Positions 2,950-44,076 of a DNA stretch of 64,000 nucleotides are shown in pieces. The position numbers and the translations under genes were made by a program. The DNA is taken from assembly GCA_051885615.1 (NCBI GenBank), contig JBJEXI010000018.1, positions 73,513-137,512 of the forward strand. Direction: 5' to 3'. This stretch comes from Thermoguttaceae bacterium (lineage in GTDB: Bacteria > Planctomycetota > Planctomycetia > Pirellulales > Thermoguttaceae). The notes under the pieces were generated by a model. That model made no database searches. It had not been told where the DNA came from and worked only from the letters and a program-made list of their open reading frames with translations. How positions within the stretch are numbered: the first letter of the stretch is position 1; each line of letters begins with the position of its first letter.

Positions 2950-4266
2950 TTATCGCGACACGGAATGATAAACTTGTCCCAGACCTGGAACTTGAATTTT
3001 ATATCGGCCTTGTTCATCCGGAACGTTCGCAGGAATTCCGTCGGGGGTGTATTCGCTCGGCCCATAAGACTTGTCTGAATTGAGCGCTTCGTCCCATGTA
3101 ATCTTTTGGCCAGTATAGCACGCCTCGCGCGACATAATTCCCATCATCGTCGCTTTCGCCATGTAATCGCCGTTGTTGATCGTATCGACTTCGCCGCGGA
3201 TTGATTTATACATCTCTTGGTGTTCGATAAGATACATGTCCGACGCAACGTTCTTACGTTCGTAAATAACCTTGCCGTCAAGATCGGTTATGATCCCGCG
3301 ACCTAAGACGGACGACACATATCCCTTCGTTCCGGAGAACGCGGCGTTGTTCTCCATCCAGGTTCCGCTATGGTGACGGCAATAGGAATACAACGTCGTG
3401 CCGTTTGGATACTCGAAAACAGAAGCCATGGAATCGTAAATATCCCCATTTCCAGGCTCCGCGACGCAAACCATGCGTCCGCCAAGCCCATAGCACGTTG
3501 CAGGCGGAACGTCGTGCATCGCCCACAAGCCCTTGTCGAGGGTGTGAACATGTTGTTCAACGTTAAAATCGCCGGAAAGCCACGCGTGATTATACCAATT
3601 CCGAACCTGTGAAATAAGTTCCGGCTCCCCTTCCACGCAAGGACGCGGCCTGTGACTTCCGCTCATATAAGTGAGACGAGCCGACGTAATATCGCCGATC
3701 GCTCCATCAAGGACGCGTTGCATAATATCTCTGACGTTCAGGTCATATCGCCAGCAAAGGCCCGACACAAGAGTAAGGCCCTTTTCTTTCGCAATCTTGG
3801 ACGATTCGATCACTGAACGCAACGTCGGTGCGTCCGTCGCCACGGGCTTTTCGCAGAAAACATGCTTTCCCTGTTCAACGGCGTAAGCAAGAGAACGGAA
3901 CCGGAAGCCGGGGACTTCGCACAAAAGAACGACATCGCAACAATCAATCACTTGCTTATAAGCGTCGAGTCCGGCAAAAATGCGCCCTTCGACGTCGACG
4001 CGATCCTCAAATTGAAGTTTAAGTCCCTCCGCCGCGCTTTGCGCCTTCGGCATGAACGCGTCGGCTACCGCATAAAGCTTCGTATTGGGATCCGCAGACA
4101 AAGTGTTGACAGCCGCCCCGTTTCCACGACCGCCGCATCCGATCAATCCGACTTTTAACTCATTGCGTTCGCCGGCATGGACGGGGGCTAAAGTCAGCCC
4201 GGTAAAAAGAGTGCCTGCGATGGTTCGTGAATTTAAAAAAACGCGGCGACTTTCAGCGGTTTTCAT
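2950..4266 (-). CDS. TAT/Sec-exported Gfo/Idh/MocA family oxidoreductase (paralog B)
   Basis: Collinear with paralog A, and by eye about two-thirds or more of residues are identical. Motifs IGCGGRG and FCEKPVA are present. I prefer the ATG at 4266, preceded by AGGAG, over the TTG at 4269. Confidence 0.85.
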   Translation of the reverse strand: MKTAESRRVFLNSRTIAGTLFTGLTLAPVHAGERNELKVGLIGCGGRGNGAAVNTLSADPNTKLYAVADAFMPKAQSAAEGLKLQFEDRVDVEGRIFAGLDAYKQVIDCCDVVLLCEVPGFRFRSLAYAVEQGKHVFCEKPVATDAPTLRSVIESSKIAKEKGLTLVSGLCWRYDLNVRDIMQRVLDGAIGDITSARLTYMSGSHRPRPCVEGEPELISQVRNWYNHAWLSGDFNVEQHVHTLDKGLWAMHDVPPATCYGLGGRMVCVAEPGNGDIYDSMASVFEYPNGTTLYSYCRHHSGTWMENNAAFSGTKGYVSSVLGRGIITDLDGKVIYERKNVASDMYLIEHQEMYKSIRGEVDTINNGDYMAKATMMGIMSREACYTGQKITWDEALNSDKSYGPSEYTPDGIPANVPDEQGRYKIQVPGLGQVYHSVSR

Positions 4267-5417: not shown

Positions 5418-6644
5418 ATGCGCGACTTTTCCATGTCTCGTCGTTCTTTTATCGTCAACAGCGCCGTCGGAGTAGCTCTAGCCTCCGCTTTACCGTCTTC
5501 AGTAAAGGGGCAAGACAAACCGAAAATCCAGGGGTTTGATGAAACCGACACGGCGGTCGACCCTAACGCTAAATGGGAGCCGTTCACTGATAGAAAGCTT
5601 CGTATTGGTATTGCGGGATACGGTTTATGCCAATTCGGCGCGCAATTTGGGCTGCAAGATCACCCTAACGCCGAAGTGGTCGCCGTAACCGATTTGTTCC
5701 CTGACCGTTGCGCGGGCCTTGCCAAAGCGTGTCGTTGTGAAAAAACATACGAATCGTTGGAAGAGATGGTCAAAGACGACTCTATCGAGGCGGTGTTTAT
5801 CGCGACGGACGCGCCGAGCCATGCCGATCTTGCGTGCCTTGCCTTAAAACATGGAAAGCACGTCGCTTCCGCCGTTCCGGCAATTTTTGGCGACGTTGAA
5901 GACGCCTACCGTCTATATGAAACGGTCAAAGCAACCGGCCTCTACTACGGAATGTTTGAAACGAGCGCGTTCCACGACGACGTCTATCAGGCGCGTAAAA
6001 TCTACAATGCCGGCGGATTTGGGCAAATGATTTACACCGAAGGCGAGTACTATCACTTCGGCGTCGGCGTCCTCGAGGGGTATAAGAACTGGCGTAGAGG
6101 CCTTCCGCCTCAATGGTATCCGACGCATTCGAACGCCTACTATACCTGCGTCACGGGCAATAGTTTCACGTCCGTTTCTTGCGTTGGTCATGTGAGCAAG
6201 GAAGAGGAATATCAGCCGGGACAAAATCCTTACAACAATTACTTTGGAACGGAAACGGCGCTTTTCACGACCTCTGAAGGAGGCTCCGCGCGAATGGTCG
6301 TGAGCTGGGACTCTTGGGGTTGGGGCGGCGAAACCGGGCGTATGCGCGGCGAACTTGGCGCCTTCAACGGCGGCTACGCCGGACGTACCGAAGAGGTGAA
6401 CAACATCGTCGCCAAATTGGGCGATCTTCGCAAACCGGCGTTGCCCCCGACGGTTGCGCCAGGTTCTCACGGCGGTTCCCACGGTTACCTGGGTTCGAAC
6501 TTTATCGAATCGATCCTAAAAGACCGTCATCCGCTCGTGAACGTGGCGGTAGCCCTTAATACGACAGTGCCTGGTATCGTCGCGCACACCTCGGCTCTCA
6601 AAGACGGCGAAACCCTCCGCATCCCGGAATTCAAGATGTGGTGA
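5418..6644 (+). CDS. TAT-exported Gfo/Idh/MocA family oxidoreductase (third, distant copy)
   Basis: The ORF is open from 5352 (TTG). I prefer the ATG at 5418, which gives MRDFSMSRRSFIVNSAVGVALASA, a twin-arginine signal. It has an N-terminal Rossmann-like IGIAGYG motif, and the length and layout are typical of the family. Confidence 0.7.
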   Translation: MRDFSMSRRSFIVNSAVGVALASALPSSVKGQDKPKIQGFDETDTAVDPNAKWEPFTDRKLRIGIAGYGLCQFGAQFGLQDHPNAEVVAVTDLFPDRCAGLAKACRCEKTYESLEEMVKDDSIEAVFIATDAPSHADLACLALKHGKHVASAVPAIFGDVEDAYRLYETVKATGLYYGMFETSAFHDDVYQARKIYNAGGFGQMIYTEGEYYHFGVGVLEGYKNWRRGLPPQWYPTHSNAYYTCVTGNSFTSVSCVGHVSKEEEYQPGQNPYNNYFGTETALFTTSEGGSARMVVSWDSWGWGGETGRMRGELGAFNGGYAGRTEEVNNIVAKLGDLRKPALPPTVAPGSHGGSHGYLGSNFIESILKDRHPLVNVAVALNTTVPGIVAHTSALKDGETLRIPEFKMW

Positions 6645-13923: not shown

Positions 13924-14124
13924 AGAAAGCAGTCCTAATCCATCTTAAAGTTTTTCGCGGACAATTTCAGAGGTTCGTCAAAAGACGCAACAGCAACTTC
14001 ATTCTAATATAATCTTAATCCAGAAACAAGAGAAAACTACCATCCTTGACAGATCAAAGAACGCCGATAACGTATGGATCGGCGTCGAGTTCTCCCTCGC
14101 GCGGACGCGGCGTCGACTATTTGA

Positions 14125-14335
14125 GAACGCAGGCGGCCTTATTCAGCGTCTCTGAATTATCGAGCGTTTGAAAGCGTAGGCATAACAGGGAATCCGGTGG
14201 AAAGTCCGGAACGGTCCTCGCCGCTGTATACGTCGCTAGGAATGATAGTTCATTCAGAGAACGTCACAAAGCCATTGACTTCCAGTCGAGAAGGCGACGT
14301 TTTTCTACGTAAGTCAGAAGACCTTCCTGCGTTTT
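14125..14335 (+). promoter_or_regulatory. Cobalamin (B12) riboswitch
   Basis: The closing helix AACGCAGG (14126-14133) pairs perfectly with CCTGCGTT (14326-14333). The conserved core is AACAGGGAAUCCGGUGGAAAGUCCGGAACGGUCCUCGCCGCUGUA (14184-14228), followed by GCCAUUG...GAAGGCG (14271-14296). The B12 box is AAGUCAGAAGACCUUCCUGCG (14311-14331). A perfect TTGACA hexamer sits upstream at 14046-14051. The element ends about 120 nt before the ATG at 14457. Confidence 0.88.
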
Positions 14336-14456
14336 GCGGTATCTTCGGAAATTCCGCGCGCCGACGCTAACGCGATGGACGAAAGCGTCGTTCGGGGATC
14401 GGCCCCTCGCTCAAATCGTCGTTCCGTTTCCTATTTTTTAAGGAGAACGCGATTCG

Positions 14457-15395
14457 ATGAAAAAAATCAATCTATCTTCCCTTAGGAGAGCGTTTACGCT
14501 TGTAGAGTTACTAGTTGTCATCGCCGTTATTGGCGTCCTCATCGGCCTATTATTGCCCGCCGTACAGGCGGCGCGAGAAACGGCCAGACGCATGACGTGC
14601 ATGAATAACGTCCGGCAAATCGGTTTGGCTTTTCATCTGTACCATGACGTTCTGGGAACCTTTCCTCCCGGCGCCCTTACGTCGAATGGAGCTAACGCCA
14701 GTTTTGGCTGGGGAGCGCTAATTCTCCCTTATCTCGAACAAGCCAATGTCAAAGACTTAGTGGATTTCAATCAACGCGTCTATGATGAAGTCAACCAAAA
14801 GGCTGGACAAACGCGTCTTCCATTTTACCTCTGCCCGTCTGATTCCGATAACGAGATTCGGGACGTCGACTATTATAACCCGGATAAGGGATGGGCGCTG
14901 GAAAAGCTCAAATTATCCCCTTCTCATTACGCCGGAATCATTACTGAAAAAATTTCGGCCTTTGGGTCGGAAACGACGGATGGTTGGACGCTTAAAAACG
15001 ACGAACTTGGGTGTTTGATTATATCTCGCGCCATACGTATCCAAGACGTCCTTGACGGAGCTTCAAATACAGTCATGGTCATGGAGACCTCGTCTTATGA
15101 AAATACAAGTTCCAAAGTTTACGACAATGGAAGTTGGATCATCGGAACCAATATTTTTCGTAAAACGACGGCGCCAATCAATTACAAGCCGAGATGCGAG
15201 CATTTTCAGTCGGGTAATCTCGTCTGGAGTTGCTCAGAGTGCAGCGCGTATCAGTATGAAGCGCGAAGTCGACACCCTTCGGGATTAAACACGCTTTTTG
15301 TCGACGGATCAGGCCGTTTCGTCTCTGAAAATACCGACCTTACGATTCTAGCGGCGACGATTACGCGCGCTCGCGGCGAGACAAATACTTTGTAA
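14457..15395 (+). CDS. DUF1559 domain protein with a prepilin-type N-terminal cleavage/methylation motif (pseudopilin-like, H-X9-DG family)
   Basis: 312 aa. The N-terminus RRAFTLVELLVVIAVIGVLIGLLLPAVQAARE is typical. The C-terminal SRHPSGLNTLFVDGSGRF is the H-X9-DG signature. AAGGAG lies upstream of the ATG. Confidence 0.92.
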   Translation: MKKINLSSLRRAFTLVELLVVIAVIGVLIGLLLPAVQAARETARRMTCMNNVRQIGLAFHLYHDVLGTFPPGALTSNGANASFGWGALILPYLEQANVKDLVDFNQRVYDEVNQKAGQTRLPFYLCPSDSDNEIRDVDYYNPDKGWALEKLKLSPSHYAGIITEKISAFGSETTDGWTLKNDELGCLIISRAIRIQDVLDGASNTVMVMETSSYENTSSKVYDNGSWIIGTNIFRKTTAPINYKPRCEHFQSGNLVWSCSECSAYQYEARSRHPSGLNTLFVDGSGRFVSENTDLTILAATITRARGETNTL

Positions 15396-15448: not shown

Positions 15449-15482
15449 AAACCTCGGGAATACTACAGAGGTTTAACTTTTT
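15449..15482 (+). terminator. Possible intrinsic terminator after the DUF1559 gene
   Basis: AAACCTC (15449-15455) pairs with GAGGTTT (15468-15474). The loop is 12 nt, followed by AAC and then TTTTT. Confidence 0.4.
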
Positions 15483-15634
15483 GATAGCTCAATGAAAAAC
15501 ATGCGACACAACCGTTTTTAGAGTCTATCCAACACCCTCCAATCGACTAAAACGAAGGGAACGCATCAAACAACGGCAGACGAAAGGTTCTTCGAAAATC
15601 CTTTCATTCTGCCTCGCTTAGAGAGGAAAGTATT

Positions 15635-17152
15635 ATGAAAAAGATCCTATCAATCGCCGCTACGATTACGGCAGCCGCCGCCTCCATCGCTATCGCGCAA
15701 CAACAAGACAAAGCGCCTGCCCAACCTACCCTTGGACGAATTCTTGTGAACGCCCGTGCGGAAAATGGTCAGTATGACCTGTCCAAAATTCTCAACAACG
15801 ATCGTATTCCGGAAGAAACCCGAAAGTTCATCCAAGAAGCCGATAAGGACAAAGACGGATTCCTCAATCGTGAAGAAGCGGCGACTCTGCGCGCCGCAAA
15901 CGCTCCCGGCGGCAATTTCCCCGGCGGTCCTCAGGGTTTTGGCGGGCCCCAGGGTGGATTTGGCGGGCCTCGCACCCCCTTCGGTGAAGCTTTTGCCGAT
16001 GGAAAGTTAGATCTTTCCAAGTTGCCCGAGAATCTTCCGGAAGAAGTGAAAACACGCTTCACTTCCGCTGATAAAGATGGAGACGGCTTCCTCACGGTTG
16101 AAGAAATGCAAGCCATGCCGCGTCCTAAGTTCCAGTTCTCCGAAGGTCAAAAACCTGATTTCATCAACGACGACAACGCTATCGTCATTGAAAAGCTCCT
16201 CGTCGCTATCAAAAAGGCCGACACGAACGAAGACGGGCTCATCGACACGGACGAACTCAAAACCGCTGCGGAATCGATTCGTGAAAATTCCCCTGAAACG
16301 CCTCGTTTCATCAACAATCTCTTCAACAGCGCTCAACCCGGCATGTTCGGCATGGGTATGGGTATGATGGGGATGGGACCGCGTCCCGATCAAGGCGGAC
16401 CGAACGCCGAAGGTCAGCCCGGCCCAGGCCGTCCCAATGCTCGTCAGCAAGGCGACGCTCGTCAACAAGGTAATCGTCAGCAAGGCGACGCTCGTCAACA
16501 AGGTAATCGTCAGCAAGGCGACGCTCGTCAACCAAGTAATCGTCAGCAGCGCGACGCACGTCAGCAGGGTAATCGTCAGCAGGGCGGTCCTCAGGGCGGA
16601 CCGCAAGGAGCTCCCCGTATGGGAATGGGATTTGGCGGCCCTGAATTAGCTGCGGCAATGACCAATGGCAAGCTCCGCCTTTCCAAGCTCCCCAAAACGA
16701 TTTCCGACGAACGCAAAGCGGCTTTCAAGGCGGCGGACAAAAATAAGGACGGATACCTGACGATGGAAGAATTCCAGGCAATGCCTGAACCCAAATTCGA
16801 ATTCGAAGAGAACAAACGACCTGCTTTCGTCGACGAAAACAATGCGTTTGTTTGCAATAAGCTCGAAGAAGCTCTTAAAGCTGCCGACAAAAATACCGAC
16901 GGAGTCATCGACGACGCGGAAATCCAAGATTTCGTCAAAGAAGTCCGCGAAGCGTCCCCCAGCTTCCAGTTCTTCATGATGCGTTCCTTCGGAGGTTTCG
17001 GACGAATGGGCGCCGGGCCGATGGGACAGCCTGGAATGGGTCAACCCGGAATGGGCGGTCCTGGTTTCGGCGGCCCTCAAGGCGGTCCCCAGGGCGAACA
17101 AGGCCAGCGTACGCGTGGCGCTCGTCAGGGCAACCGCGCCTCTCAGGAATGA
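15635..17152 (+). CDS. Secreted EF-hand calcium-binding repeat protein with Q/G/R low-complexity linkers
   Basis: 505 aa with signal peptide MKKILSIAATITAAAASIAIAQQ. Five EF-hand-like loops are visible: DKDKDGFLNREE, DKDGDGFLTVEE, DTNEDGLIDTDE, DKNKDGYLTMEE and DKNTDGVIDDAE. The N- and C-halves are internally duplicated. Confidence 0.85.
   Translation: MKKILSIAATITAAAASIAIAQQQDKAPAQPTLGRILVNARAENGQYDLSKILNNDRIPEETRKFIQEADKDKDGFLNREEAATLRAANAPGGNFPGGPQGFGGPQGGFGGPRTPFGEAFADGKLDLSKLPENLPEEVKTRFTSADKDGDGFLTVEEMQAMPRPKFQFSEGQKPDFINDDNAIVIEKLLVAIKKADTNEDGLIDTDELKTAAESIRENSPETPRFINNLFNSAQPGMFGMGMGMMGMGPRPDQGGPNAEGQPGPGRPNARQQGDARQQGNRQQGDARQQGNRQQGDARQPSNRQQRDARQQGNRQQGGPQGGPQGAPRMGMGFGGPELAAAMTNGKLRLSKLPKTISDERKAAFKAADKNKDGYLTMEEFQAMPEPKFEFEENKRPAFVDENNAFVCNKLEEALKAADKNTDGVIDDAEIQDFVKEVREASPSFQFFMMRSFGGFGRMGAGPMGQPGMGQPGMGGPGFGGPQGGPQGEQGQRTRGARQGNRASQE
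16442..16587 (+). repeat. 33-bp in-frame tandem repeat (about 4.4 copies) inside the EF-hand gene
   Basis: Units of CGTCAGCAAGGCGACGCTCGTCAACAAGGTAAT lie at 16442, 16475, 16508 and 16541, with a partial unit at 16574. They encode (RQQGDARQQGN)n, and the later copies are diverged. Confidence 0.9.
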
Positions 17153-17297: not shown

Positions 17298-19106
17298 TCA
17301 TTTGGTATCTCCGCCAGTCCACTCGTTGGGAATGAAGCCAAGACGTTTCGCCACGAAGATCGAATCGGGGGTTATCAGTCTTTGCCAAGCCTTATTTCTG
17401 GGAGACCATCGAAATCCACATTCGCGCAACTTCATACGAATCTCATCGTCTGGTTTGGATTCAAAGATAATTTGCAAACGATTCAATTCGTAATTGAGCT
17501 TCGCCCTTCCCCCTTCAAAGGGCCAACTATTGTCCTCGTCTGTCGGTTTTATTTGCGTCAAGAATCCGAGCCGACGCTCTACCCGTTTAATCTCGGCTAA
17601 GCTAGAAGATAAATCAAAATAATTGGAGAGCGCGTTAGGATCCTGCGGAATCACGTCTTTCAAAACGCCGTCGTATCCGTCCCACGATCCGTGTTTACGT
17701 CGATAGCTATTCGCCTCTTTCATCGCCGCATGCTTCTCTTTAAGTTCAATCAATCGCGCTTGAAGCTTCGAGAAATCATTCGACTCTTCCATCGTCGTCG
17801 GAGAAGTCGGCGGCTTTGAGGAAGTCTTCTGCGTCGGCGCAGGGACAGGTTCCGTTTGCGTTAGATTATGAGGAATCGTCTTTGCCGCAACGCCGATCCC
17901 CACCTTCCCGATTTCATGCGCTAAATCGTCAATTTTTTCATGTTCTCGAAAAAGTTCGCTCGCGCGTTTTACTTTCGCGGCATGCTTTTCGCGCGGCACG
18001 GCTTTTGGTCCGACAAGTCGCGCGGAAGGACAAGACGCCGCGTTCTTATGATAATTGTCGTACCAAATGGCGAGCTGACGTTCATATTCTTCTAGCAAAA
18101 GATCGATCGCCTCGTGATATTCGCTCCCCACCTTCTCCTTTTGCCGAGCCGCCGTCGCGCGCGCGGTGTTGACGGATGCGCGATACTCGCGCGTCGCCGT
18201 ATTCGGAACATATTCTCGAAAAGAATTCGACTCCTGCGCCTGACGCGCCAACCTTTCGTCAATTAGATAGAATCCGCTTTGAGGATCGCGCTCGATAACT
18301 CTTTCTTCATTCGCCTTCGAATCTTTTGAGTTGGAATCCGCGTCCTCCAACGCGCTAGAAGCTTGCGTTCCTTGATCTTCAGTGGTTTTAGGGGACGTTT
18401 TGACCGGCGTTCCCTCGACCATCGACTTTGACTTCTCGGCATTCTTAGACGCCTTTGCTTCGAGAAGTCTTTTCTTTTCGTCCCTCTTCCTAATCGCCTG
18501 ATAGCAATCGTAAACGAAATCTATCAGACGATTGCAAAGCGTTTCCACCTCAGACGACTCGCTAAAGGAATAGTCGTCAAGAGCGGAGATATATTCGCTC
18601 AATTGAAACGCTATTTCACGACTATCTTCGCTTACGATATAATCGATCAACTCGTTTAACTTAGCGTCTCCACGCTTGTCGGTCGAGATCACTTGGGCCA
18701 TATTGATAGCAAAGTTCGCAAGTCGATCGCTCTTTAGCATGGGCTTCTTATCAAAAAGCCAAGCGTTGACGAGCTCGCGACGTTTTTCCGGCGTCGCTTG
18801 AAGCCAATCTCGATCAAACGAGCGGCGAGCGTACGCTTCAAAAACCTCTTTATCTGAAATATAACCGTCGATTTTACGAAGACAACGTCTAATGAGAGGC
18901 CATTTTGATTCACGAAGAGCTCGACCGTCCGGTGAATTATCCAACGTGAGAAAGATGGACGTCGCGTTATACAATTCTTGATCGAGCGTATAATCGGAAC
19001 CCGGCAGATCCTCAATTGATCGCAAATAAGATACAATACCGTCTAAACGCGCAAATAAATCATTCCAATCCCGCTTGTCGCTCGAACGTTCATCGGAACA
19101 TGTCAT
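17298..19106 (-). CDS. Hypothetical protein with a DUF3560-like C-terminal module
   Basis: 602 aa with an ATG start. The C-terminus LNRLQIIFESKPDDEIRMKLRECGFRWSPRNKAWQRLITPDS resembles the '...KP...LK..GF(R/K)WS....W.R' end of DUF3560, from my recollection of that family. The preceding helical region KLQARLIELKEKHAAMKEANSYRR also resembles it. I do not recognise the N-terminal 250 aa. Confidence 0.5.
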   Translation of the reverse strand: MTCSDERSSDKRDWNDLFARLDGIVSYLRSIEDLPGSDYTLDQELYNATSIFLTLDNSPDGRALRESKWPLIRRCLRKIDGYISDKEVFEAYARRSFDRDWLQATPEKRRELVNAWLFDKKPMLKSDRLANFAINMAQVISTDKRGDAKLNELIDYIVSEDSREIAFQLSEYISALDDYSFSESSEVETLCNRLIDFVYDCYQAIRKRDEKKRLLEAKASKNAEKSKSMVEGTPVKTSPKTTEDQGTQASSALEDADSNSKDSKANEERVIERDPQSGFYLIDERLARQAQESNSFREYVPNTATREYRASVNTARATAARQKEKVGSEYHEAIDLLLEEYERQLAIWYDNYHKNAASCPSARLVGPKAVPREKHAAKVKRASELFREHEKIDDLAHEIGKVGIGVAAKTIPHNLTQTEPVPAPTQKTSSKPPTSPTTMEESNDFSKLQARLIELKEKHAAMKEANSYRRKHGSWDGYDGVLKDVIPQDPNALSNYFDLSSSLAEIKRVERRLGFLTQIKPTDEDNSWPFEGGRAKLNYELNRLQIIFESKPDDEIRMKLRECGFRWSPRNKAWQRLITPDSIFVAKRLGFIPNEWTGGDTK

Positions 19107-30281: not shown

Positions 30282-31823
30282 TCAGTTCTCCTTCTTCGCT
30301 TGAAAAACAAGGGGCAAGAACCGTTCAAGCGCTTTTTCAACGAGATTAACAGGCGCCGCGTTCCCCATCTGCTTACGAAGCTGCGAATAGGACGTCACAA
30401 CCTTAAAGTCATCCGGAAAACCTTGAAGGCGAAGAAGTTCTAAGGGCGTAAAGCGCCTCTCCCCATTAACCAAAAGATAATTGTGACTAGCGCCCGCTCG
30501 AAGCGCGCAACTATACGGATACGACGATACAATTCCAGACTTATTCTCATGCCATACCGCAGGGAAATACTTCGACTGATGCAAGCGCTTACGGCTAGCC
30601 ACGATCTCCGGCGAAGCGTAAAAACGACGCGGTATCTTCTCTTCCGGTTCAAGAATATCCTTGAGCTCCTTGCCGCCGCGCGTTTTCTTCGGCCACTCCA
30701 TTTCAAAAGGCGTCGTCGAACCCACGATTACAACGCGTTCGCGTTTTTGAGGCAGCCCGCAATCTAAAGCGTTCAAAACTCGCCAATCGACGTAATAGCC
30801 AAGTTCGTCCTGCAATACTCTCAGAATCACTTCAAAGGTTCGACCGCCGTCGTGCGTCGTCAATTGGCGGACATTTTCCAAGACAAAAGCGCGGGGTCTC
30901 TTATCATGCAAAATACGCGCTATTTGAAAAAAAAGCGAACCTTTGGTTTCGTCGGCAAATCCTTTTCGAAGACCGATGATAGAAAAAGTTTGACAAGGAA
31001 AACCGGCAAATAAGAGGTCAAAGTCCGGAATATCCGCCGACGGGAGGAATTTGATATCGCCAAAGGGTTCGTCGCCAAAATTCGCCGCGTAACTTTTCTG
31101 CGCAAAGGGATCGACGTCGCAACTTAGGGAACAGCGCCCCTGACGTCCCATTTTCTTAATAACTCTCTCTGCGGCGTAACGAAATCCGCCTACTCCGCAA
31201 AAGAGATCGAAAAAGCGTATCGGGCGATCTTCCGTTGGATCCTGGAGCCCAAGGGGCGAGGACGCCAAGCCCTCGACAGAAGCCGTTTTGGAATAGTAGG
31301 AAGAGGTTGTTTGACTCTTACGAGGAGCGCCCACGCGCGATCGCGCTCTTTCCTTTTCTTCTTCAAGCGAGAAGAAAGGATCCCCCTCGGGAACGAAAGG
31401 GTCGGCGACGCTCAATCGAGGCACGTACGGCTGTACTTTCATCGCAGGTTCAGAGGAGTTGGAAGAAGAAGGGCCGGCTTCGGCGTCTTTTTTGTTCGCA
31501 CTCTTTACCGACGCTTTTTCATGAGTCCGAGCGGCGCCCTTTTTACGCGTCGCCTTTTTCACAGAAGAGGGTTCGTCCAAATGAGCTTTATTTTCGGGAG
31601 ACGTAGGAGACGGCAGAGGATTCGCTACGGCGAACAGTTCCTCAACCGTAACGTCAAGCGCCTGAGCCAATCGAAGGGCAACGGCGACTGAGAGATCCCC
31701 GCCATCCTCTTCCACCGCCTGTAGAAACTCCGAAGAAATATTAGCAAGGGTCGCTAAGTCGTCTCTCGTAAGAAAACGCGCCTCACGACAGCGCTTCACG
31801 TGATTAAAGGTCGTCACAATCAC
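30282..31823 (-). CDS. dcm: DNA (cytosine-5)-methyltransferase with an N-terminal XRE-type HTH domain
   Basis: m5C methyltransferase motifs: I FDLFCGVGGF, IV GFPCQTFS, VI ENV, VIII QKRERV and X MGNAAPV. The N-terminal HTH is LTRDDLATLANISSEFLQAVEEDGGDLSVAVALRLAQALDVTVEELF, followed by a roughly 130-aa low-complexity linker. The start appears to be GTG. Confidence 0.9.
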   Translation of the reverse strand: MIVTTFNHVKRCREARFLTRDDLATLANISSEFLQAVEEDGGDLSVAVALRLAQALDVTVEELFAVANPLPSPTSPENKAHLDEPSSVKKATRKKGAARTHEKASVKSANKKDAEAGPSSSNSSEPAMKVQPYVPRLSVADPFVPEGDPFFSLEEEKERARSRVGAPRKSQTTSSYYSKTASVEGLASSPLGLQDPTEDRPIRFFDLFCGVGGFRYAAERVIKKMGRQGRCSLSCDVDPFAQKSYAANFGDEPFGDIKFLPSADIPDFDLLFAGFPCQTFSIIGLRKGFADETKGSLFFQIARILHDKRPRAFVLENVRQLTTHDGGRTFEVILRVLQDELGYYVDWRVLNALDCGLPQKRERVVIVGSTTPFEMEWPKKTRGGKELKDILEPEEKIPRRFYASPEIVASRKRLHQSKYFPAVWHENKSGIVSSYPYSCALRAGASHNYLLVNGERRFTPLELLRLQGFPDDFKVVTSYSQLRKQMGNAAPVNLVEKALERFLPLVFQAKKEN

Positions 31824-31986: not shown

Positions 31987-34900
31987 TCAATTCGAGGCGT
32001 GTTTGGAAATAAAGTTTTCGACAAGCTCGCGAATATTCCATAAGGGATGCACAGCCCCACGACATTCCGCTCGACGCGTCAATTCAAGAGCTCGACGCGC
32101 GTTCTTGAGCGCCGCTTCCTTATCTTTACGCGCGAGTTCGAGATGAGCTCTAATGTAATAAGCCGTAGCTAAAAGCGGCTTGGCAGCGTAAAAATGCCGT
32201 TCAAATAACCAACGAAAATCCTCTTCGATTTCGTCCGCGCTTACGGCAACTTTCTTCAAATCTCCCCAACGCCGACGTTCGACGCGAGCCAATCCCTCAG
32301 CAATCTTCATTTTCAGATTCAAAAATTTGAATTCGAGCGTTTCTTTCTCATTCAGCGATCTAGAAAAAGCGTCGTCGATTTTCAAGTGAAATTGCTTGCA
32401 CGCGCTAATCGTAGCGTTCCACTCTCGACGTTGAACGCAGTACTCAACAAAACACTGATAATAAAAACCGCCGTTGCGTACGAGAGGCCCGCCATAGCGT
32501 TTTGCATGGAGAACCAACGCGTCGACCAATAATCGGAGAAGCCATACGGGACGTTTCGCCCCCCTGGCGAAGATGGAGTACAGCCTCGCCTGAAAATAGA
32601 GGTAATGTTCCATCTCCCAGTCTTCAGGAAAAAAGGGCTTGTCCGCGTCCTCCACAACGCGTCGATCCCAGAAAAAGTCGCTTAAAAAGGACCATTTTTT
32701 AAAAGTTGACGCCAGCGCGAGCGTCGCCGGTCGTCCTTCGAGGAGCTTTTGAATCCTCGTAATTTCTTCGACGCTGCGTCGATTTAACTCCTCGCTCGGA
32801 CGTTCATGGAAATACGCCGTTTCGTAATGATATAAATCAACGACCAATTCGCTCCCGACAATTTCTCTAATAACGTCAACGGAAGGTTCCCCATCGCTAA
32901 ATTTATCACGAAATTCCAAAAGACGACGGGTCGCAAGACTTCGCGTACGGCAGATCTTTTCACATTCTTCCTTGATCGAATATGTTTTGTAGAAGAGAAG
33001 ACTCTTGAACGTTGCGTCAAAGACTGCAGCCTGGATCTCTGAATCATGTGAAGCCAGGAATTCGCTGAGCTGCTCCGCTTTGACCCCGAGACGACGCCCC
33101 TCATAGTAACAATTTCTCACGAATCCGTAATAATAACTCGCTCGACTAAACGTCAACCATGCAAATCCCGCAACCTCCAATAGATTGGAAGACTGATCGT
33201 CTATGCTCTCATTATTCTCCTCACATAGCAAAGGCGCGTATAATAGATCAAAAAACTCCTCAAAACGATGGAATAAGAGACGCACATAAACACTCGACGC
33301 CTCGATAAACTCGCACATCGCCTGGGCTAATCCGACAAACGCCTCGTCGCGAGCTTCAGAGTTCTTCTCCAAAACCATCACAAAAATATTTGAAGCGCAG
33401 AGAAGACGTCTCTCCTTTATCTTAAGATCTTCGTCTTCCAAGGCCGCCAGCCTTAGGAATGAACGTCCGATGACGGCATGCGCCAAAAGAAGTTTCTTAA
33501 TCGATGTAGGAGCGCTTGAGTATTTCTCGTCAAAACGCTCCAGCAATTCTTTTTCAAATTCGTCGGCCCCGTCAGTTTCACTATTCATGGCGGCGTTTGC
33601 CATTTCGTGGTAAAAGAGTAAAAGCGCGCACTGTACTAAATAATTGTCTGGTTTAACAGTCTCGTCAAATTTCGATACCGAATCTAGAATTTCACGTCTC
33701 GCCGCTTTTTCACGGCCATGCGTCACTAGTAAATCATAGTAGCGTCCCGCGCAATGCAAGTAGGTCGATGCGAAGGATGGACTATGTTCGCTCACCTTTC
33801 TTCCCATTCTGAGAATATTGAGCAACCATGCCTCGAGAAACATAACCTTATTGTATGGCAAATTTGAGCAGGCGACGCTGAAAGGGACGCTCTCCTCTTC
33901 GACGCTCTCTTCTTCGCCAACCTTCTTCTCCTCGATCAGCGTAACGGTAAGATCGGGCTGGGGATCGTTTTCGACCTCCCTCTCCTCCAACCCTTCTTTC
34001 ACGGCGCGAGAAACGTCAGCTTTAAACCACTGATCCGCCTCGTCTTCGTTCGTCTCCTCGATCTCTTCGATACTCACATCCGAACGCGAATCAGGTTCGA
34101 TCGGCTTCCCTAACGCCAAACAACAACACGTCTTAAACGACAGAACACCGAGAAAGAAGGCGCACGTCCATAAAGCGTTACTCTTTTCGTCTTGACCGTT
34201 CTCCTCCTCCTCAGATTCCGGTTCGCTCTCTGCGGTATCGGTCGTTGAAACCGAAATAGTATTCAAAAAGGCGCGCGCATTATCGAGAGAAGACGTTATT
34301 TCCTTAACCGAATCCGGATCATATTCTCTTAGGCAAAACATCGTCGTTTTGAAAGAACTATACGCCTCTTGGTAAGCCAATTGGTATTCGCCATGCTTCC
34401 AATAGAATTCTACCAACGTCTTATTGATTGACGTCCAGGAAGAACAATAGCTATAGGCTCCCGTCCCAATTAGCTTCCGATAGGCGTTTGAAATCTGGCA
34501 TAGGTCGGAAAAAAAGGAGCGCTCCACAACGTTTTCAGCCAATTTCTGCGTGAAAAACTGAGCGCGCTTCCCATCCAGTGATTGTGGGTTCACATGATTC
34601 GAAGACGTTAGAAAACTCGTCGGTTCAGGGAGAAACACTATCTCGTCTTCCCCCAAAACCGGATGTTTTTCCAGGAAATGAACGCGTTCTCTTACGAGAT
34701 AGATTCGTAATTCGTCATTTTTTCTCAGCAAGTAGGCCTGATCGCTCGACGAGAGGGAGGAAGAATCGTTTCCCCATTCTTGACTCAAAAAAGAACGACG
34801 CAGATGCTGTAAATAACTTAACCAAAAACGAACCAAGCGCAAATACGAACGCGAGTCCTTGGAATCTCGGGCAAAGAAAAGGGATACGCGAATATCAGAT

Positions 34901-37002
34901 TCTAGAAATTCCCAATATTTCCACTCGCGGGACGCCAAATCAGACGTCAAAAAACGAACGGAACGCGCTAGAGTTTGCTTTGCCTCCTGCTTTTTACCAA
35001 ACTTCCACTGAAGAATGGCGAAACGCCAATAAAAGTTATAGAACAGAAGTTTGTCGTTTTCTAAAACGTCCTTGTCAAGCAGCTCCGAATTGGCCGCCTC
35101 GTACAACTTCTGAAAATCTTCGTAAATCAAGCGAAAATTGCGTTTAAAAAGGAAGTTAAACGCCGCTCTTTGAAAGTAAATGCGAGCCTGACATAATCGC
35201 AATCTTGCGCGATCTTTGTCGTCGGAATCGAGCTTCGCCAATTCGAGAGAAACGGCCAACGCCTTTTCCGTCGCCTCCTTCGCGTCGTTCATACGATTTG
35301 CGCGCGCCAGCAGCACGTGAATATGCAACAAAGCGTCGCAATAGTCCGCGTCTAAGGTAAGTCTCTCGCTATCGGTCAACTTACTTCGAATCTCCTCAAA
35401 GACGGAGTCAAGTTCTTTCACTTTATCCCACGACCGAGCGGCGACGGCAATATCATGAACAAGAGCGAAAGCGGAAACAAATACCGACGAGGGGCTATGA
35501 TTTTCGTCTTTTTCCAAAGCTTGAGCAACCGCTTGAAAAAGCGCTTGTAGATCGCGACTCGCCGCGTTGACGCGTTTCTCGATGAGATGCAAGCCCGCTC
35601 GAACGCGTAGGGCTCCTGCCAAAAGGAAAAGAGAAGCGACGCGCTTCTTCAGAGGAAGTTCGTTGTTTAAATTCGTTCGGAGAATTTCAATAGAACGATC
35701 GAGAATCGCCGAAGCGACCTGGAAATTCTGTTCGGAAAGATAAACTTCCGCTTGAAAACGCTGTATGTTCACTAACGGAATATAAAAACGATCGTTATTC
35801 GATAAATAGAGGCGTTCCTGAACAGAGTGAGCCTGCTCTAAGACGTCCTTCACTTCGTCAAGACGTCCCATACTTCGAAGAGTAACGGCAAGCTGACACA
35901 ATATATTGGCCTTCTGAATCTGAATGAGATCGGTACGTTTCGCAACGTCGCAAATACTCAACGCTTCGCGATAATGCGCGACCGCCTCCTTCAAGTCGCC
36001 AACCGTTCGGTAGGCGTCCGCTTTCCACGTTTTTAGCGGGATAAGAAACCGCGCGTCCCTATCGTCGGAATTGAAGATGATATCAGACTCCGTCGCTAAC
36101 TCTTCCGCTTTTTGAAAAGAGGTCAACGCTACGCCGCCGGCCCCTGAAAAAATAAGCGCCTGACCGTGCATCAGCCACGTGCGCGACAAATTCTCCCTAG
36201 CTTGGGCAGATTTCTCTTTGGCATACCAAGCCCGCGCTCGCGATAAAGCCTCCCCGACAACGTCGAAGGGAGCCTTCTTTCGATTGCGAAGATAAAAAAC
36301 GGAGCGGAGCAAGACGATTTCACACGACAATTCGTCGTACTCGTTCCCAAAGATGTACGTCGATTCATCTAGGTTCCTCTGCGCCTCGTCAAATAGCGCA
36401 AGAGCCTGTTCGCGATCAGACCAACGTAAAGTATTCGCATAACGGAGAATCAAACGAATCAAGTCTGAACGCGCAGACTCTTCGCCTGCGCGAACTCTCT
36501 CTCGAAGCGTCTCGATTTTCTTGGCGTCTGGAATATTATCGTCGTCGTAAAACTCCGCTTCTCCGTCTTCGTCGTCAAAAAAATCCCCTTCCTGACTCTC
36601 GTCGTCGAAAGCGTCGTCCTTCTTTCCGCCGCGATTCTTAAAAAAGGGGCCAAGATAATTACCGCTGGAATGATCTTGCGACGACTCCGGCGAATCCTCG
36701 TCCGGCGAATCTTCACTTGATTCATATAAGGAGTCGTCCTCGTCTTCCTCTTCGTCTCCGTTGGAAATCTCTTCCGCCCACTCGTCCCAATCGTCTTCGG
36801 GTTCGTCTATCTCTTCGACGTTCGTGCGACGAGACAACGCCCGAAGAACGTCTCTGAAAGATTGATTTAGAGAATCGAAAAAATCCGAATCCACATTCTC
36901 ATGTTCGTTATCTTGAGTTACGGCGCCTAACGCAAAGATCAGAAGAAACCCAAGCATGGCTCCCAAGGGAATCATCGTCGTCAACTGAATGGTCTCGATC
37001 AT
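31987..37002 (-). CDS. Giant (1671 aa) membrane-anchored hypothetical protein with acidic tracts and TPR-like helical repeats
   Basis: An uninterrupted 5-kb ORF with an ATG start preceded by GAGG. It has an N-terminal TM helix (MIPLGAMLGFLLIFALGAV) and poly-D/E segments. The rest is predicted helical-repeat sequence. I saw no Walker A motif, nuclease motif or other catalytic motif. Confidence 0.8.
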   Translation of the reverse strand: MIETIQLTTMIPLGAMLGFLLIFALGAVTQDNEHENVDSDFFDSLNQSFRDVLRALSRRTNVEEIDEPEDDWDEWAEEISNGDEEEDEDDSLYESSEDSPDEDSPESSQDHSSGNYLGPFFKNRGGKKDDAFDDESQEGDFFDDEDGEAEFYDDDNIPDAKKIETLRERVRAGEESARSDLIRLILRYANTLRWSDREQALALFDEAQRNLDESTYIFGNEYDELSCEIVLLRSVFYLRNRKKAPFDVVGEALSRARAWYAKEKSAQARENLSRTWLMHGQALIFSGAGGVALTSFQKAEELATESDIIFNSDDRDARFLIPLKTWKADAYRTVGDLKEAVAHYREALSICDVAKRTDLIQIQKANILCQLAVTLRSMGRLDEVKDVLEQAHSVQERLYLSNNDRFYIPLVNIQRFQAEVYLSEQNFQVASAILDRSIEILRTNLNNELPLKKRVASLFLLAGALRVRAGLHLIEKRVNAASRDLQALFQAVAQALEKDENHSPSSVFVSAFALVHDIAVAARSWDKVKELDSVFEEIRSKLTDSERLTLDADYCDALLHIHVLLARANRMNDAKEATEKALAVSLELAKLDSDDKDRARLRLCQARIYFQRAAFNFLFKRNFRLIYEDFQKLYEAANSELLDKDVLENDKLLFYNFYWRFAILQWKFGKKQEAKQTLARSVRFLTSDLASREWKYWEFLESDIRVSLFFARDSKDSRSYLRLVRFWLSYLQHLRRSFLSQEWGNDSSSLSSSDQAYLLRKNDELRIYLVRERVHFLEKHPVLGEDEIVFLPEPTSFLTSSNHVNPQSLDGKRAQFFTQKLAENVVERSFFSDLCQISNAYRKLIGTGAYSYCSSWTSINKTLVEFYWKHGEYQLAYQEAYSSFKTTMFCLREYDPDSVKEITSSLDNARAFLNTISVSTTDTAESEPESEEEENGQDEKSNALWTCAFFLGVLSFKTCCCLALGKPIEPDSRSDVSIEEIEETNEDEADQWFKADVSRAVKEGLEEREVENDPQPDLTVTLIEEKKVGEEESVEEESVPFSVACSNLPYNKVMFLEAWLLNILRMGRKVSEHSPSFASTYLHCAGRYYDLLVTHGREKAARREILDSVSKFDETVKPDNYLVQCALLLFYHEMANAAMNSETDGADEFEKELLERFDEKYSSAPTSIKKLLLAHAVIGRSFLRLAALEDEDLKIKERRLLCASNIFVMVLEKNSEARDEAFVGLAQAMCEFIEASSVYVRLLFHRFEEFFDLLYAPLLCEENNESIDDQSSNLLEVAGFAWLTFSRASYYYGFVRNCYYEGRRLGVKAEQLSEFLASHDSEIQAAVFDATFKSLLFYKTYSIKEECEKICRTRSLATRRLLEFRDKFSDGEPSVDVIREIVGSELVVDLYHYETAYFHERPSEELNRRSVEEITRIQKLLEGRPATLALASTFKKWSFLSDFFWDRRVVEDADKPFFPEDWEMEHYLYFQARLYSIFARGAKRPVWLLRLLVDALVLHAKRYGGPLVRNGGFYYQCFVEYCVQRREWNATISACKQFHLKIDDAFSRSLNEKETLEFKFLNLKMKIAEGLARVERRRWGDLKKVAVSADEIEEDFRWLFERHFYAAKPLLATAYYIRAHLELARKDKEAALKNARRALELTRRAECRGAVHPLWNIRELVENFISKHASN

Positions 37003-40281: not shown

Positions 40282-40923
40282 TCAGGAAGCCGAATCTGCG
40301 TTATCGGTTTCAGCGGGCTTCTGGGCGGCAATTACTACTTGAGTTGCGCGCACAACTCGATCGTGAAGTTTAAAACCAGCCTTGAGCTCCACGAGTACGG
40401 TATTCGCAGGAAATTCATCGGAGGGCATAAACGCGACGGATTCATGGAAATTCGGATCGAAGGGTTTATGGAGCGCGTCTATTTTCTCCACGCCCTGCTT
40501 CTTCAACACGTTCAAGAACTCGTCGTAAACCATTTTCACGCCGTCAAGAACCGCTTTGCCATTCTTTTCAGGGTCGTCGATCTGAAGAGCCAGACCGAGA
40601 TTGTCCCAAACGGGGAGAATAGCGCGCGCCAGATCCATCGACGCATACTTTCTCTCTTCTGCATGGAGTCGATTCGTACGCGCTCGATAATTCTCCAACT
40701 CGGCAAGCGCTCTAAGACCTCGATCTTTTGCTTCTTCAAGCTCTTGCTTCAATTTATCGTACTCAGACTTCGGAATCGAAATCAATTCGTCAGTTTCCGC
40801 GCCGTCTTGCGCGCAAGCTTGTTCAACTTCGGTGGAAGTCGATTGAACATTCTGGTCGGAACTCTCATTGAAGACGGGGGTTTCGGGCCCTTTTTCCTGT
40901 TTATTTTCTTTCATATAACTCAT
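40282..40923 (-). CDS. grpE: Nucleotide exchange factor GrpE
   Basis: 213 aa. It has the coiled-coil LRALAELENYRARTNR and the C-terminal beta domain ...HEAVAFMPSDEFPANTVLVELKAGFKLHDRVVRATQVVIA. Confidence 0.92.
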   Translation of the reverse strand: MSYMKENKQEKGPETPVFNESSDQNVQSTSTEVEQACAQDGAETDELISIPKSEYDKLKQELEEAKDRGLRALAELENYRARTNRLHAEERKYASMDLARAILPVWDNLGLALQIDDPEKNGKAVLDGVKMVYDEFLNVLKKQGVEKIDALHKPFDPNFHESVAFMPSDEFPANTVLVELKAGFKLHDRVVRATQVVIAAQKPAETDNADSAS

Positions 40924-41026
40924 ACAACTCTGTCGAAACAGAGTCGCCTTTCATTCATTATTAACGCTCCCCGTCAGGCGGAGAGCAAATTAGGGGCGAA
41001 TTTAAACCGGCGATCAATGCGCGGTC

Positions 41027-42208
41027 TCAATCTTCGGAAGACTTGTCCTTCTCGGAAGGCTTGTCTTTTTCAAACTTCTTCTCCGGGAAGAAATCCGCCA
41101 CGAATTTTTTAAGTCGAGAACCGAACGATCCGCGTTCAGGAAGAACGGCGTCCCCTTCGATTTCCGCTAATTGCCTCAAAATCTTCTCATGCTCGGGTTT
41201 GATCTTTGTCGGCACCTCAATAAAGAGCTGAATCAAAAGATCCCCCGCGACATTGCGACGCGGAGTCGGCATTCCGCGTCCTCGCAATCTAACAATATCG
41301 CCGTTTTGCGTTCCAGCGGGAATCTTAATCTTCTCGACGCCGTCGAGCGTTGGGACTTCAATCTCAGCGCCAAGCGCCGCTTGCGCGTAACCGACCGGAA
41401 TTCTACAGATAAGATCTTGCCCCTCGCGTCTGAAGAGAGGATGCTGCTGCAAGCGGATAATGACGTAACAATCCCCCGAAGGACCGCCGTTGGGAGAATG
41501 ATCTCCCTCTCCCTGAATTCGAAGACGCGTCCCGCTATCGACGCCTGCGGGAATACGAACGTTACGAACGACCTCTCGACGAACGAGCCCCGCGCCGCGA
41601 CAATCGGGACATGGATCCGTAATCACAGAACCGCGACCGCCGCACTGCGGACACGTCGTCTGGATGGAGAAAACGCCCGTCGACTGCTGAATCCGACCGC
41701 GACCGCCGCAATACTTACACTGAACAGGTTTCGTACCAGGTCTTGCGCCGGAACCGTGACACGTTTCGCAGACTTCTCTACGATAAAAACGGATCTCCTT
41801 GGAAACGCCCTTCGCGGCTTCGTGCAAATCGAGCGTCAGGGGGCATTGAACGTCTGCGCCTTGTTGAACGCGAACGCCGCCTCGACCGCCGCCGAAGATA
41901 TCGCCAAATCCGAACATATCCCCAAAGATGTTGAAAATATCGCCGACGTCGTTGAAACTATGACCGCCGCCTTGGTTTTCAAGCCCGCTCTTGCCGTATC
42001 GATCGTAAATCTGTCTTTTATCAGGATCGCTTAAAACTTCGAAAGCCTCCGCGCAGATCTTAAATTTGGCAACCGCTTCTTCATCGCCGGGATTCCGGTC
42101 GGGATGATATTTAAGAGCCGCTTTACGATACGCCGATTTAATTTCATCCTGAGAAGCGGAACGCTCAATTCCCAATAATTCGTAATAGTCGATTTCTTCG
42201 GCCATCAT
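41027..42208 (-). CDS. dnaJ: Molecular chaperone DnaJ
   Basis: J domain DYYELLGI...YHPDRNPGD, a G/F-rich region and four CxxCxGxG repeats ([32 protein letters not shown]). The ORF is open to the GTG at 42220, but I prefer the ATG at 42208 or 42205. Confidence 0.93.
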
Positions 42209-42380
42209 TAACACTTCCACTAATAGGCTCTTATTTAGAGAACCTATTCATATAAAGACGTCGACGCCTAAAGCGTCTGCCAAAAGCGAACTGAGGGCGA
42301 CGCCGCGAGGCGCCGCAAACCTGGATTTAATGACCGACGCGCCGCCTTCGCGACGCGCCTGTCGAAAAACGCTCAACGAA

Positions 42381-42456: not shown

Positions 42457-44076
<1,620 letters not shown>

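Follow-up and report, generated by a model that had tools for sequence, protein, structure and literature searches.

A cobalamin riboswitch paired with a prepilin-type DUF1559 subfamily of planctomycetes suggests a pilin-like accessory in cobamide scavenging

Cobalamin riboswitches of the RF00174 type are, with few exceptions, OFF switches. Among the systems described for vitamin B12 acquisition, the closest to the locus studied here involve DUF4465, the domain of Bacteroides BtuJ1 and BtuJ2; six divergent members have been shown to bind B12, among them two verrucomicrobial proteins and one of the planctomycete Mucisphaera calidilacus, and the neighbours listed for DUF4465 genes are ATP-binding cassette (ABC) transporters, TonB-dependent transporters (barrels and plugs) and BtuG propellers, with DUF1559 and pilins unmentioned (2026 paper, PMC13398666). 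DUF1559, or H-X9-DG, ranks with the largest groups of paralogs in Planctomycetota; it appears in few papers, which describe a large family of unknown function, with 68 copies in Planctopirus limnophila, two of them essential (PMC10632474). Here we analyse a 64,000-nucleotide (nt) stretch of a Thermoguttaceae bacterium (contig JBJEXI010000018.1 of assembly GCA_051885615.1, positions 73,513 to 137,512; hereafter the window), in which a cobalamin riboswitch precedes a prepilin-type DUF1559 gene. The riboswitch as such is ordinary, and the regulated gene is the new part: full-text searches found no literature that connects cobalamin riboswitches with DUF1559, H-X9-DG or pilin-like proteins.

RF00174 gives a single match in the window, at 14161-14344 on the plus strand (Rfam cmscan; 68.3 bits against a gathering score of 31.5, E = 1e-14), and the match spans model positions 1-189 of 189, a full-length aptamer. 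The score, more than twice the gathering threshold, bears out the identity proposed by the first-pass annotation, which had named this very search as its check; the core, GCCATTG, GAGAAGGCG and the B12 box all lie where that annotation had placed them. Its closing helix (14126-14133 with 14326-14333) is likewise real, makes the better P1 and grows to 10 bp (14124-14133 with 14326-14335). The Rfam alignment chose a closer, wobble-containing 5' strand in place of this outer helix, with 18 model positions deleted. In an alignment of seven sequences, the outer P1 is 100% paired and two of its pairs show compensatory AU<->GC changes, compared to 45-64% pairing in slid controls, and the helix is contained in the unconstrained minimum free energy fold of the leader. 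The window leader is a bona fide cobalamin riboswitch, and its parts, with the gene that follows, are:

14124-14335, plus strand: cobalamin riboswitch aptamer, P1 to P1; RF00174 match, with outer limits set by the covariation-supported P1.
14124-14133, plus strand: 5' strand of P1, AGAACGCAGG; 10 of 10 pairs with 14326-14335.
14188-14228, plus strand: aptamer core GGGAATCCGGTGGAAAGTCCGGAACGGTCCTCGCCGCTGTA, that is, GGGAAUCCGGUG...CGGUCCUCGCCGCUGUA; nearly invariant in an alignment of 12 diverse loci.
14271-14296, plus strand: GCCAUUG (14271-14277) and GAGAAGGCG (14288-14296), with a small hairpin between them; Rfam match and alignment.
14311-14323, plus strand: B12 box AAGUCAGAAGACC (DNA AAGTCAGAAGACC), of which AGTCAGAAGACC is invariant in the aligned loci.
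14326-14335, plus strand: 3' strand of P1, CCUGCGUUUU; pairs with 14124-14133.
14457-15395, plus strand: DUF1559 / H-X9-DG prepilin-type gene, 312 residues; PF07596, PF07963 and TIGR04294.

The first open reading frame (ORF), about 120 nt downstream of the riboswitch, had been read as a prepilin-type DUF1559 (H-X9-DG) protein, and profile matches agree: PF07596 (DUF1559/SBP_bac_10) scores 179.1 bits against a gathering value of 23.3 over residues 37-295, the prepilin motif is matched by PF07963 N_methyl (25.8 bits against 21.2) and TIGR02532 (25.0 against 16.3), and TIGR04294 H-X9-DG scores 28.8 bits against 19, with H273-X9-D283-G284 encoded at 15273-15308. Residues 1-12 form the leader, followed by the cleavage motif RRA↓FTLVE (A↓FTLVE at 14490-14507) with Glu at +5. 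An AlphaFold2 model computed with 54 homologues (predicted local distance difference test score, pLDDT, 90.9; predicted template modelling score 0.85) consists of a 52-residue N-terminal helix (15-66) and a beta-rich head. At the sequence level, PDB matches are limited to the N-terminal helix, in geopilin, PilA and GspG, and in a Foldseek search against the PDB the helix alone aligns (best E 0.44), with no solved relative of the head. The GspG, GspH, ComGC and PilA models score far below their cut-offs (34 against 89 for GspG, and 28 against 75 for ComGC), and the protein shows neither a pilin or pseudopilin head fold nor membership of any such equivalog. The predicted structure shows a pilin-type architecture with a novel head. 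Two further ideas about the protein were discarded: a bilobed fold of the substrate-binding protein (SBP) or BtuF type, suggested by the Pfam name SBP_bac_10, is unsupported, as the model of pLDDT 90.9 matches neither a periplasmic binding protein nor BtuF; and Ala at the -1 position of the cleavage site is not a clade-specific trait, as A and G both occur in the subfamily and in paralogs.

The pairing of riboswitch and gene recurs. Protein searches return an orthologous series from 91% down to ~45% identity, beyond which generic paralogs follow. Scanning a single genome for each GTDB species yielded 29 loci, almost all from gut, rumen or termite Thermoguttaceae or related planctomycete metagenome-assembled genomes (MAGs), the closest of which (93% identity) comes from a Hadza gut sample; two of the 29, L028 and L029, are paralogs at 30-35% and were used as negative controls. 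Of the 27 ortholog loci, 25 carry RF00174 in front of the gene and in the same orientation (33.5-90.8 bits). The contig of L008 begins inside the aptamer, with the B12 box and 3' half present, and L026 lacks the 5' end of the gene. Further loci from the 45%-identity clade are all positive (3/3, 87-102 bits). The closest loci keep an M48 peptidase-LemA pair upstream and an EF-hand gene downstream. Flanking genes are unrelated in L015, L017, L018, L020-24 and L030-32 (e.g. transposase, SpoU, PfkB, aldo-keto reductase, ferrochelatase, RuvB and HtrA), and therefore only the riboswitch-DUF1559 pair is conserved among these. Recurrence in other genomes, which the first-pass annotation had put forward as a check, is thus seen in all 30 informative loci of the orthologous clade (93-45% protein identity), and also in a second, more distant set described below.

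Three observations on these loci stand apart from the argument. A termite-gut MAG carries a ferrochelatase gene ~400 nt downstream of the riboswitch-DUF1559 pair on the same strand (L020:6354-7301), which may be coincidence. The M48-LemA/riboswitch/DUF1559/EF-hand arrangement, with 88% protein identity to the window, also occurs on a contig titled Paratractidigestivibacter sp. (L002, CAVGEG010000005.1); a planctomycete arrangement under an actinobacterial name probably reflects a mis-binned contig. Finally, one sub-clade (L011, L012, L013, L014, L016, L019, L025, L027 and L008) has a poorly conserved insertion of ~250 nt in the aptamer periphery, between the 5' core and the B12 box (e.g. L016:4243-4653), and Rfam therefore reports only the 5' part or a 410-nt match in these loci.

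A second set of loci places the pair beside a B12-binding domain. Shorter homologues (~270 residues) that rank just below the 45% clade, together with a protein of Allorhodopirellula heiligendammensis, have RF00174 upstream (71.8-104.8 bits), and in 9/9 distinct loci the order is RF00174, DUF1559, DUF4465 (L040, L064, L113, L114, L117, L118, L120, L123 and L125), with the two genes in the same orientation and directly consecutive. These loci derive from environmental planctomycetes, including cultured A. heiligendammensis itself (L118, SJPU01000002.1, 939287-950288; 333-residue DUF1559). In L040 and L064, where RF00174 scores 87.9 and 64.3 bits, the next gene encodes a DUF4465 protein with PEP-CTERM. 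The reciprocal search, starting from DUF4465, gave four proteins of Planctomycetota-Verrucomicrobiota-Chlamydiota type; three of their genes are directly preceded by a DUF1559 gene and riboswitch, and in the fourth (L122) the riboswitch stands directly before DUF4465, with no DUF1559 gene. The operon of L123 continues into CobA/BtuR, a corrinoid adenosyltransferase. Just downstream of DUF1559-DUF4465, L117 and L120 carry a second cobalamin riboswitch before a gene with a TonB_C domain (L117:6775-7024 and L120:5044-5298), and a TonB-dependent receptor gene lies nearby in L117 (8086-10200, minus strand). The riboswitch-DUF1559 pair is therefore repeatedly linked to a B12-binding domain, a corrinoid adenosyltransferase and a riboswitch-controlled TonB gene. 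For a functional switch, the first pass had inferred a link of the pseudopilin to corrinoid sensing, capture or uptake, and the link to capture or uptake is strengthened by these deeper-branching relatives, in which the riboswitch-DUF1559 pair is co-oriented with, and directly before, DUF4465, in some cases with CobA/BtuR or riboswitch-TonB in addition. The conserved riboswitch-DUF1559-DUF4465 arrangement thereby gives a defined DUF1559 subfamily its first testable function.

Some details of these environmental loci deserve separate mention. The riboswitch-controlled TonB gene of L117 and L120 looked unusual. L122 carries two cobalamin riboswitches (3445-3711 and 5752-6017), one before the DUF4465 and PEP-CTERM protein and the other before a PEP-CTERM protein that belongs to no recognised family and may represent an additional, uncharacterised member of the B12 regulon. 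In L118 (6070-11002), the gene after riboswitch-DUF1559 encodes a giant protein of >1900 residues with Planc_extracel, DUF4465 and dockerin domains.

To place the riboswitch-linked proteins within the wider family, 80 loci of generic DUF1559 paralogs (28-39% identity) were taken as controls from a metagenome scan anchored on the generic pilin N-terminus; all were screened with a B12-box regular expression, and a subset with Rfam. Only L040 and L064 were positive by this expression and confirmed by Rfam, and both carry DUF4465; the Rfam scan found no RF00174 in 31 other control loci or in L028 and L029. In a BLOSUM62 neighbour-joining (NJ) tree of 107 DUF1559 proteins, all riboswitch-linked members fall in one clade, which contains 0/76 riboswitch-free paralogs. 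A Kimura-distance NJ tree with five more sequences recovers two monophyletic groups, the gut plus 45% set (27) and the DUF4465-linked set (9). Reciprocal profile hidden Markov models (HMMs), built with the N-terminal helix removed, give medians of 160-171 bits between the sets compared to 102-105 bits for paralogs. E164 and I166 are common to both sets and occur in 1% of paralogs, G225, I228 and R270 are also subfamily-specific, and both sets share a GCG(A/C)NGGAC motif in the leader. Compared with the short DUF4465-linked proteins, those of the gut clade contain four insertions, at 134-147, 170-179, 214-221 and a Cys-rich stretch at 247-264. The pairing of this riboswitch with one branch of DUF1559 is specific and widely conserved; that the two sets form a single riboswitch-linked subfamily is, from the sequence comparisons, likely but not proven.

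The leader between P1 and the start codon is highly conserved, in the order H1, GCGAUGGAC, GGGG/CCCC hairpin, GUCGUUCCGUUUCCU, U-rich loop and Shine-Dalgarno (SD) sequence, and offers a candidate expression platform:

14046-14073, plus strand: putative sigma-70-type promoter, TTGACA (14046-14051), 16-nt spacer, TAACGT (14068-14073); a candidate by sequence pattern only.
14336-14357, plus strand: hairpin H1 right after P1, GCGG-loop-CCGC, with YCGGA kept in the loop; the stem covaries between clades, with 2 compensatory pairs.
14372-14380, plus strand: leader motif GCGA-N-GGAC (GCGAUGGAC), complementary to GUCC-UCGC of the aptamer core.
14418-14432, plus strand: putative anti-SD element GUCGUUCCGUUUCCU; CGUUC and UCCU pair with AGGA-GAACG, covering the SD hexamer except its first base.
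14440-14445, plus strand: SD sequence AAGGAG, 11 nt before the ATG; sequence and alignment.

The -35 hexamer and spacing of the candidate promoter are kept in the closest loci (L001-L003), and a consensus promoter scan did not pick up 14046-14073. The GCGA-N-GGAC motif follows P1 in nearly all DUF1559-linked leaders, distant ones included (as GCGAGGGAC or GCGCGGGAC), is absent from the TonB-linked riboswitch of L117, and may act as an anti-aptamer strand. Seven sequences share an identical, 100% paired SD hairpin, and the unpaired probability of the SD is <=0.3 in both full-length and platform-only folding ensembles. CGUUCCG of the anti-SD element is also complementary to CGGAACG of the core, and together with GCGA-N-GGAC it forms the reverse complement of the invariant core CGGAACGGUCCUCGC, which hints at an alternative fold without ligand, with the anti-SD strand bound by the core. 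With ample cobamide, the riboswitch at 14124-14335 would repress the DUF1559 gene at 14457-15395, most likely at the level of translation: the ligand-bound state would let the anti-SD strand (14418-14432) sequester the SD, and in the ligand-free state the aptamer core would pair with the anti-SD strand instead, an ON state that stays a model. We infer, in short, an OFF switch whose ribosome-binding site is occluded when ligand is bound. In the sub-clade with the aptamer insertion, the DUF1559 SD lies another ~200 nt downstream of a U-rich, terminator-like element; the same leader element is followed there by U6-7, and a termination mechanism may operate. Two possible coding elements in these leaders were rejected: a small ORF (cluster C7) between riboswitch and gene in L011-14/16/19/25/27, which has no Pfam match and in the alignment turns out to be the variable ~250-nt aptamer insertion, with indels that are not multiples of three, and the ATG inside GCGATGGAC as a leader-peptide start, a position that varies across loci (AAG, ACG or GTG).

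Taken together, these data make it probable, with good though not full confidence, that the gene encodes a B12-repressed, pilin-like envelope protein, accessory in cobamide scavenging, under a vertically inherited and functional riboswitch. The riboswitch is an unusually direct functional label, because the cell wants the regulated protein only when cobamide is scarce. The DUF1559 protein would be made only under B12 limitation, exported, anchored or polymerised via its type-IV-pilin-like N-terminal helix, and would act in the cell envelope, perhaps in B12 capture, relay or tethering. Its candidate roles are direct binding, relaying to a TonB-dependent transporter, tethering DUF4465 or serving as its secretion adaptor, and binding in the periplasm from a membrane anchor. 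In the ancestral form, represented by the environmental planctomycetes, DUF1559 would work with the co-transcribed, BtuJ-like DUF4465 protein and TonB-dependent uptake; in the gut Thermoguttaceae, the adjacent DUF4465 gene would have gone and four surface insertions, including the Cys-rich loop, would have been gained. The case for the gut lineage follows from the riboswitch together with homology to the DUF4465-linked proteins.

Several results weigh against this reading. On the side of specificity and subfamily unity, many control loci are short and were screened by the B12-box expression only, the union of the two riboswitch-linked sets appears in only 43/100 NJ bootstraps, and the tails of the HMM score distributions overlap; the two sets may have recruited the riboswitch independently. 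With regard to the switch, no clear ON state emerges from folding: enforced apo pairings cost +6 to +15 kcal/mol, UCCU/AGGA is still paired in these folds so that the SD is not fully freed, and the SD hairpin shows no covariation among the seven sequences, as its sequence never varies. As to function, the head has no structural match to BtuF, BtuG, BtuJ or any solved fold (Foldseek against the PDB), and therefore no binding site can be inferred. Moreover, DUF4465, a TonB-dependent receptor and pilus-assembly genes are all absent from the window and the gut-clade loci examined, so that in the gut lineage the riboswitch is the only adjacency link to B12 uptake.

The strongest rival holds that DUF1559 is a pseudopilin or adaptor that exports, places or tethers B12 scavengers (DUF4465/BtuJ-like proteins and others) via a type II secretion system (T2SS) or type IV filament machine, does not handle B12 itself and is co-regulated for that reason only. 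The invariable position of DUF1559 upstream of, and co-oriented with, DUF4465 in the 9/9 environmental loci fits such a role, as do the pseudopilin-like N-terminus with its weak GspG and ComGC matches, and the riboswitch-controlled DUF4465 of L122, which has no adjacent DUF1559 gene. However, the riboswitch of the gut clade has been retained before DUF1559 alone, and the flanks examined contain no DUF4465, so that the protein evidently has a use when B12 is limiting even with no cargo gene beside it; in addition, the DUF4465 partners carry PEP-CTERM sorting signals, which point to an exosortase rather than a T2SS. We regard this adaptor role as rather unlikely, albeit worth keeping in mind.

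Less likely still is an unpolymerised cobamide binder, anchored in the inner membrane and facing the periplasm, that would feed an ABC importer as a functional analogue of BtuF. The Pfam name of PF07596 ('SBP_bac_10') invites this interpretation, the long hydrophobic N-terminal helix could serve as a membrane anchor, and the -1 residue is Ala where Gly is canonical. Yet in the Foldseek search the head resembles neither BtuF nor any periplasmic binding protein, Ala and Gly vary freely at -1 among paralogs and hence are not special to the subfamily, and ABC transporter genes are unlinked in all loci examined. It is highly improbable that the function has nothing to do with cobamide transport (e.g. 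adhesion, or an altered surface that pays off when B12 runs short, for instance by attachment to B12 producers) or that the riboswitch is an idle relic: the window has no B12 gene and the head has no recognisable ligand-binding fold, but an idle aptamer would not have kept P1 covariation and a score above the gathering threshold through divergence to <=45% protein identity and loss of synteny, and the recurrent placement next to DUF4465, CobA/BtuR and riboswitch-TonB units speaks specifically for cobamide acquisition.

The B12-repressed envelope protein favoured here is probably the sole product of its regulated unit. Two features lie immediately downstream of the gene:

15449-15483, plus strand: terminator-like hairpin AAACCUC/GAGGUUU followed by AACUUUUUG; -9.6 kcal/mol in the window.
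15635-17152: gene for a secreted EF-hand protein (signal peptide, five EF-hands); Pfam and sequence.

Stronger hairpins (-15 to -27 kcal/mol, followed by U4-6) occur 60-140 nt past the DUF1559 stop codon in most orthologous loci. Given these hairpins and U-runs, the regulated unit would consist essentially of one gene, and the EF-hand gene, which the earlier reading had correctly identified as the next gene after the hairpin, would be a neighbour by synteny, probably outside the unit. It was rejected as a co-regulated partner, being syntenic in the closer loci only and separated by the terminator-like hairpins. Its product has a central, low-complexity stretch rich in Q, G and R with tandem GDARQQGNRQQ-like repeats. 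The gene beyond it is on the opposite strand: at 17298-19106 (minus), a 602-residue protein without a Pfam match (cluster C10), kept in the closest loci, converges on the EF-hand gene.

Across all large ORFs of the window, Pfam identified housekeeping genes only, with no btuB, btuFCD, cob/cbi, metE, nrd or TonB-dependent receptor gene and no pilus or T2SS machinery; the absence of adjacent known B12 genes remarked on in the first pass thus extends over the whole 64 kb. Genes for a filament ATPase, platform or secretin are likewise missing from the window and the loci examined, and may lie elsewhere in the genome. Searches by tblastn with three DUF4465 partners found no DUF4465 in the window or L001-L032. 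Elsewhere in the window, two tandem GroEL (Cpn60) paralogs (42457-44064 and 44568-46232) lie by DnaJ and GrpE (40282-42220) on the minus strand, and a C5 cytosine DNA methylase fused to a helix-turn-helix domain (30282-31823) adjoins a 1671-residue tetratricopeptide repeat protein with almost no other recognisable domain (31987-37002).

The riboswitch-DUF1559-DUF4465 module is, in our assessment, a previously unreported form of riboswitch-controlled B12 acquisition locus, and adds a pilin-like component to a cobamide-scavenging field so far dominated by Bacteroides lipoproteins. Gut and rumen planctomycetes are little studied, and competition for B12 in these habitats shapes fitness; the presence of the module in a cultured strain, Allorhodopirellula heiligendammensis, opens an experimental route. 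Type IV, competence and T2SS filaments take up DNA or extrude proteins across the outer membrane, and we know of no report of a pilin under vitamin control. A more ambitious, and doubtful, extension is that the subfamily provides the cobamide-capturing or relaying subunit of a retractable type-IV-like filament, with pilus-based import of B12 across the outer membrane. If so, it would constitute a novel type of machinery for taking up vitamins, comparable to the uptake of DNA through competence pili, and the DUF1559 expansions might represent ligand-specific capture pilins for many nutrients.

Comparison with known systems clarifies what is shared and what is distinct. Like the translational OFF switch of E. 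coli btuB, the window leader has an RF00174 aptamer and, as proposed above, a ribosome-binding site that would be occluded when ligand is bound; unlike it, the window-type platform has lineage-specific, core-complementary GCGA-N-GGAC and GUCGYUCCG elements, and one DUF1559-linked sub-clade carries the ~250-nt insertion in the aptamer periphery. With type IV pilins, ComGC and GspG-K, the protein shares a short basic leader, the (G/A)↓FTLxE motif, in which Glu occupies +5, and a hydrophobic helix of ~50 residues at the N-terminus, whereas its head (~245 residues) matches no solved pilin or pseudopilin head and no assembly genes are nearby. The closest parallel is provided by the btuB/btuG/btuH/btuJ loci of B. 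thetaiotaomicron, in which a cobalamin riboswitch likewise turns on accessory exported proteins under B12 limitation, besides a TonB-dependent core (PMC13398666, PMC13616437), and the environmental planctomycete version shares the BtuJ1/J2 domain DUF4465. In contrast to these Bacteroides loci, (i) the first regulated planctomycete gene is a prepilin-type DUF1559, (ii) the DUF4465 partners carry PEP-CTERM signals and are not lipoproteins, and (iii) the lineage of the window is reduced to riboswitch and DUF1559 alone.

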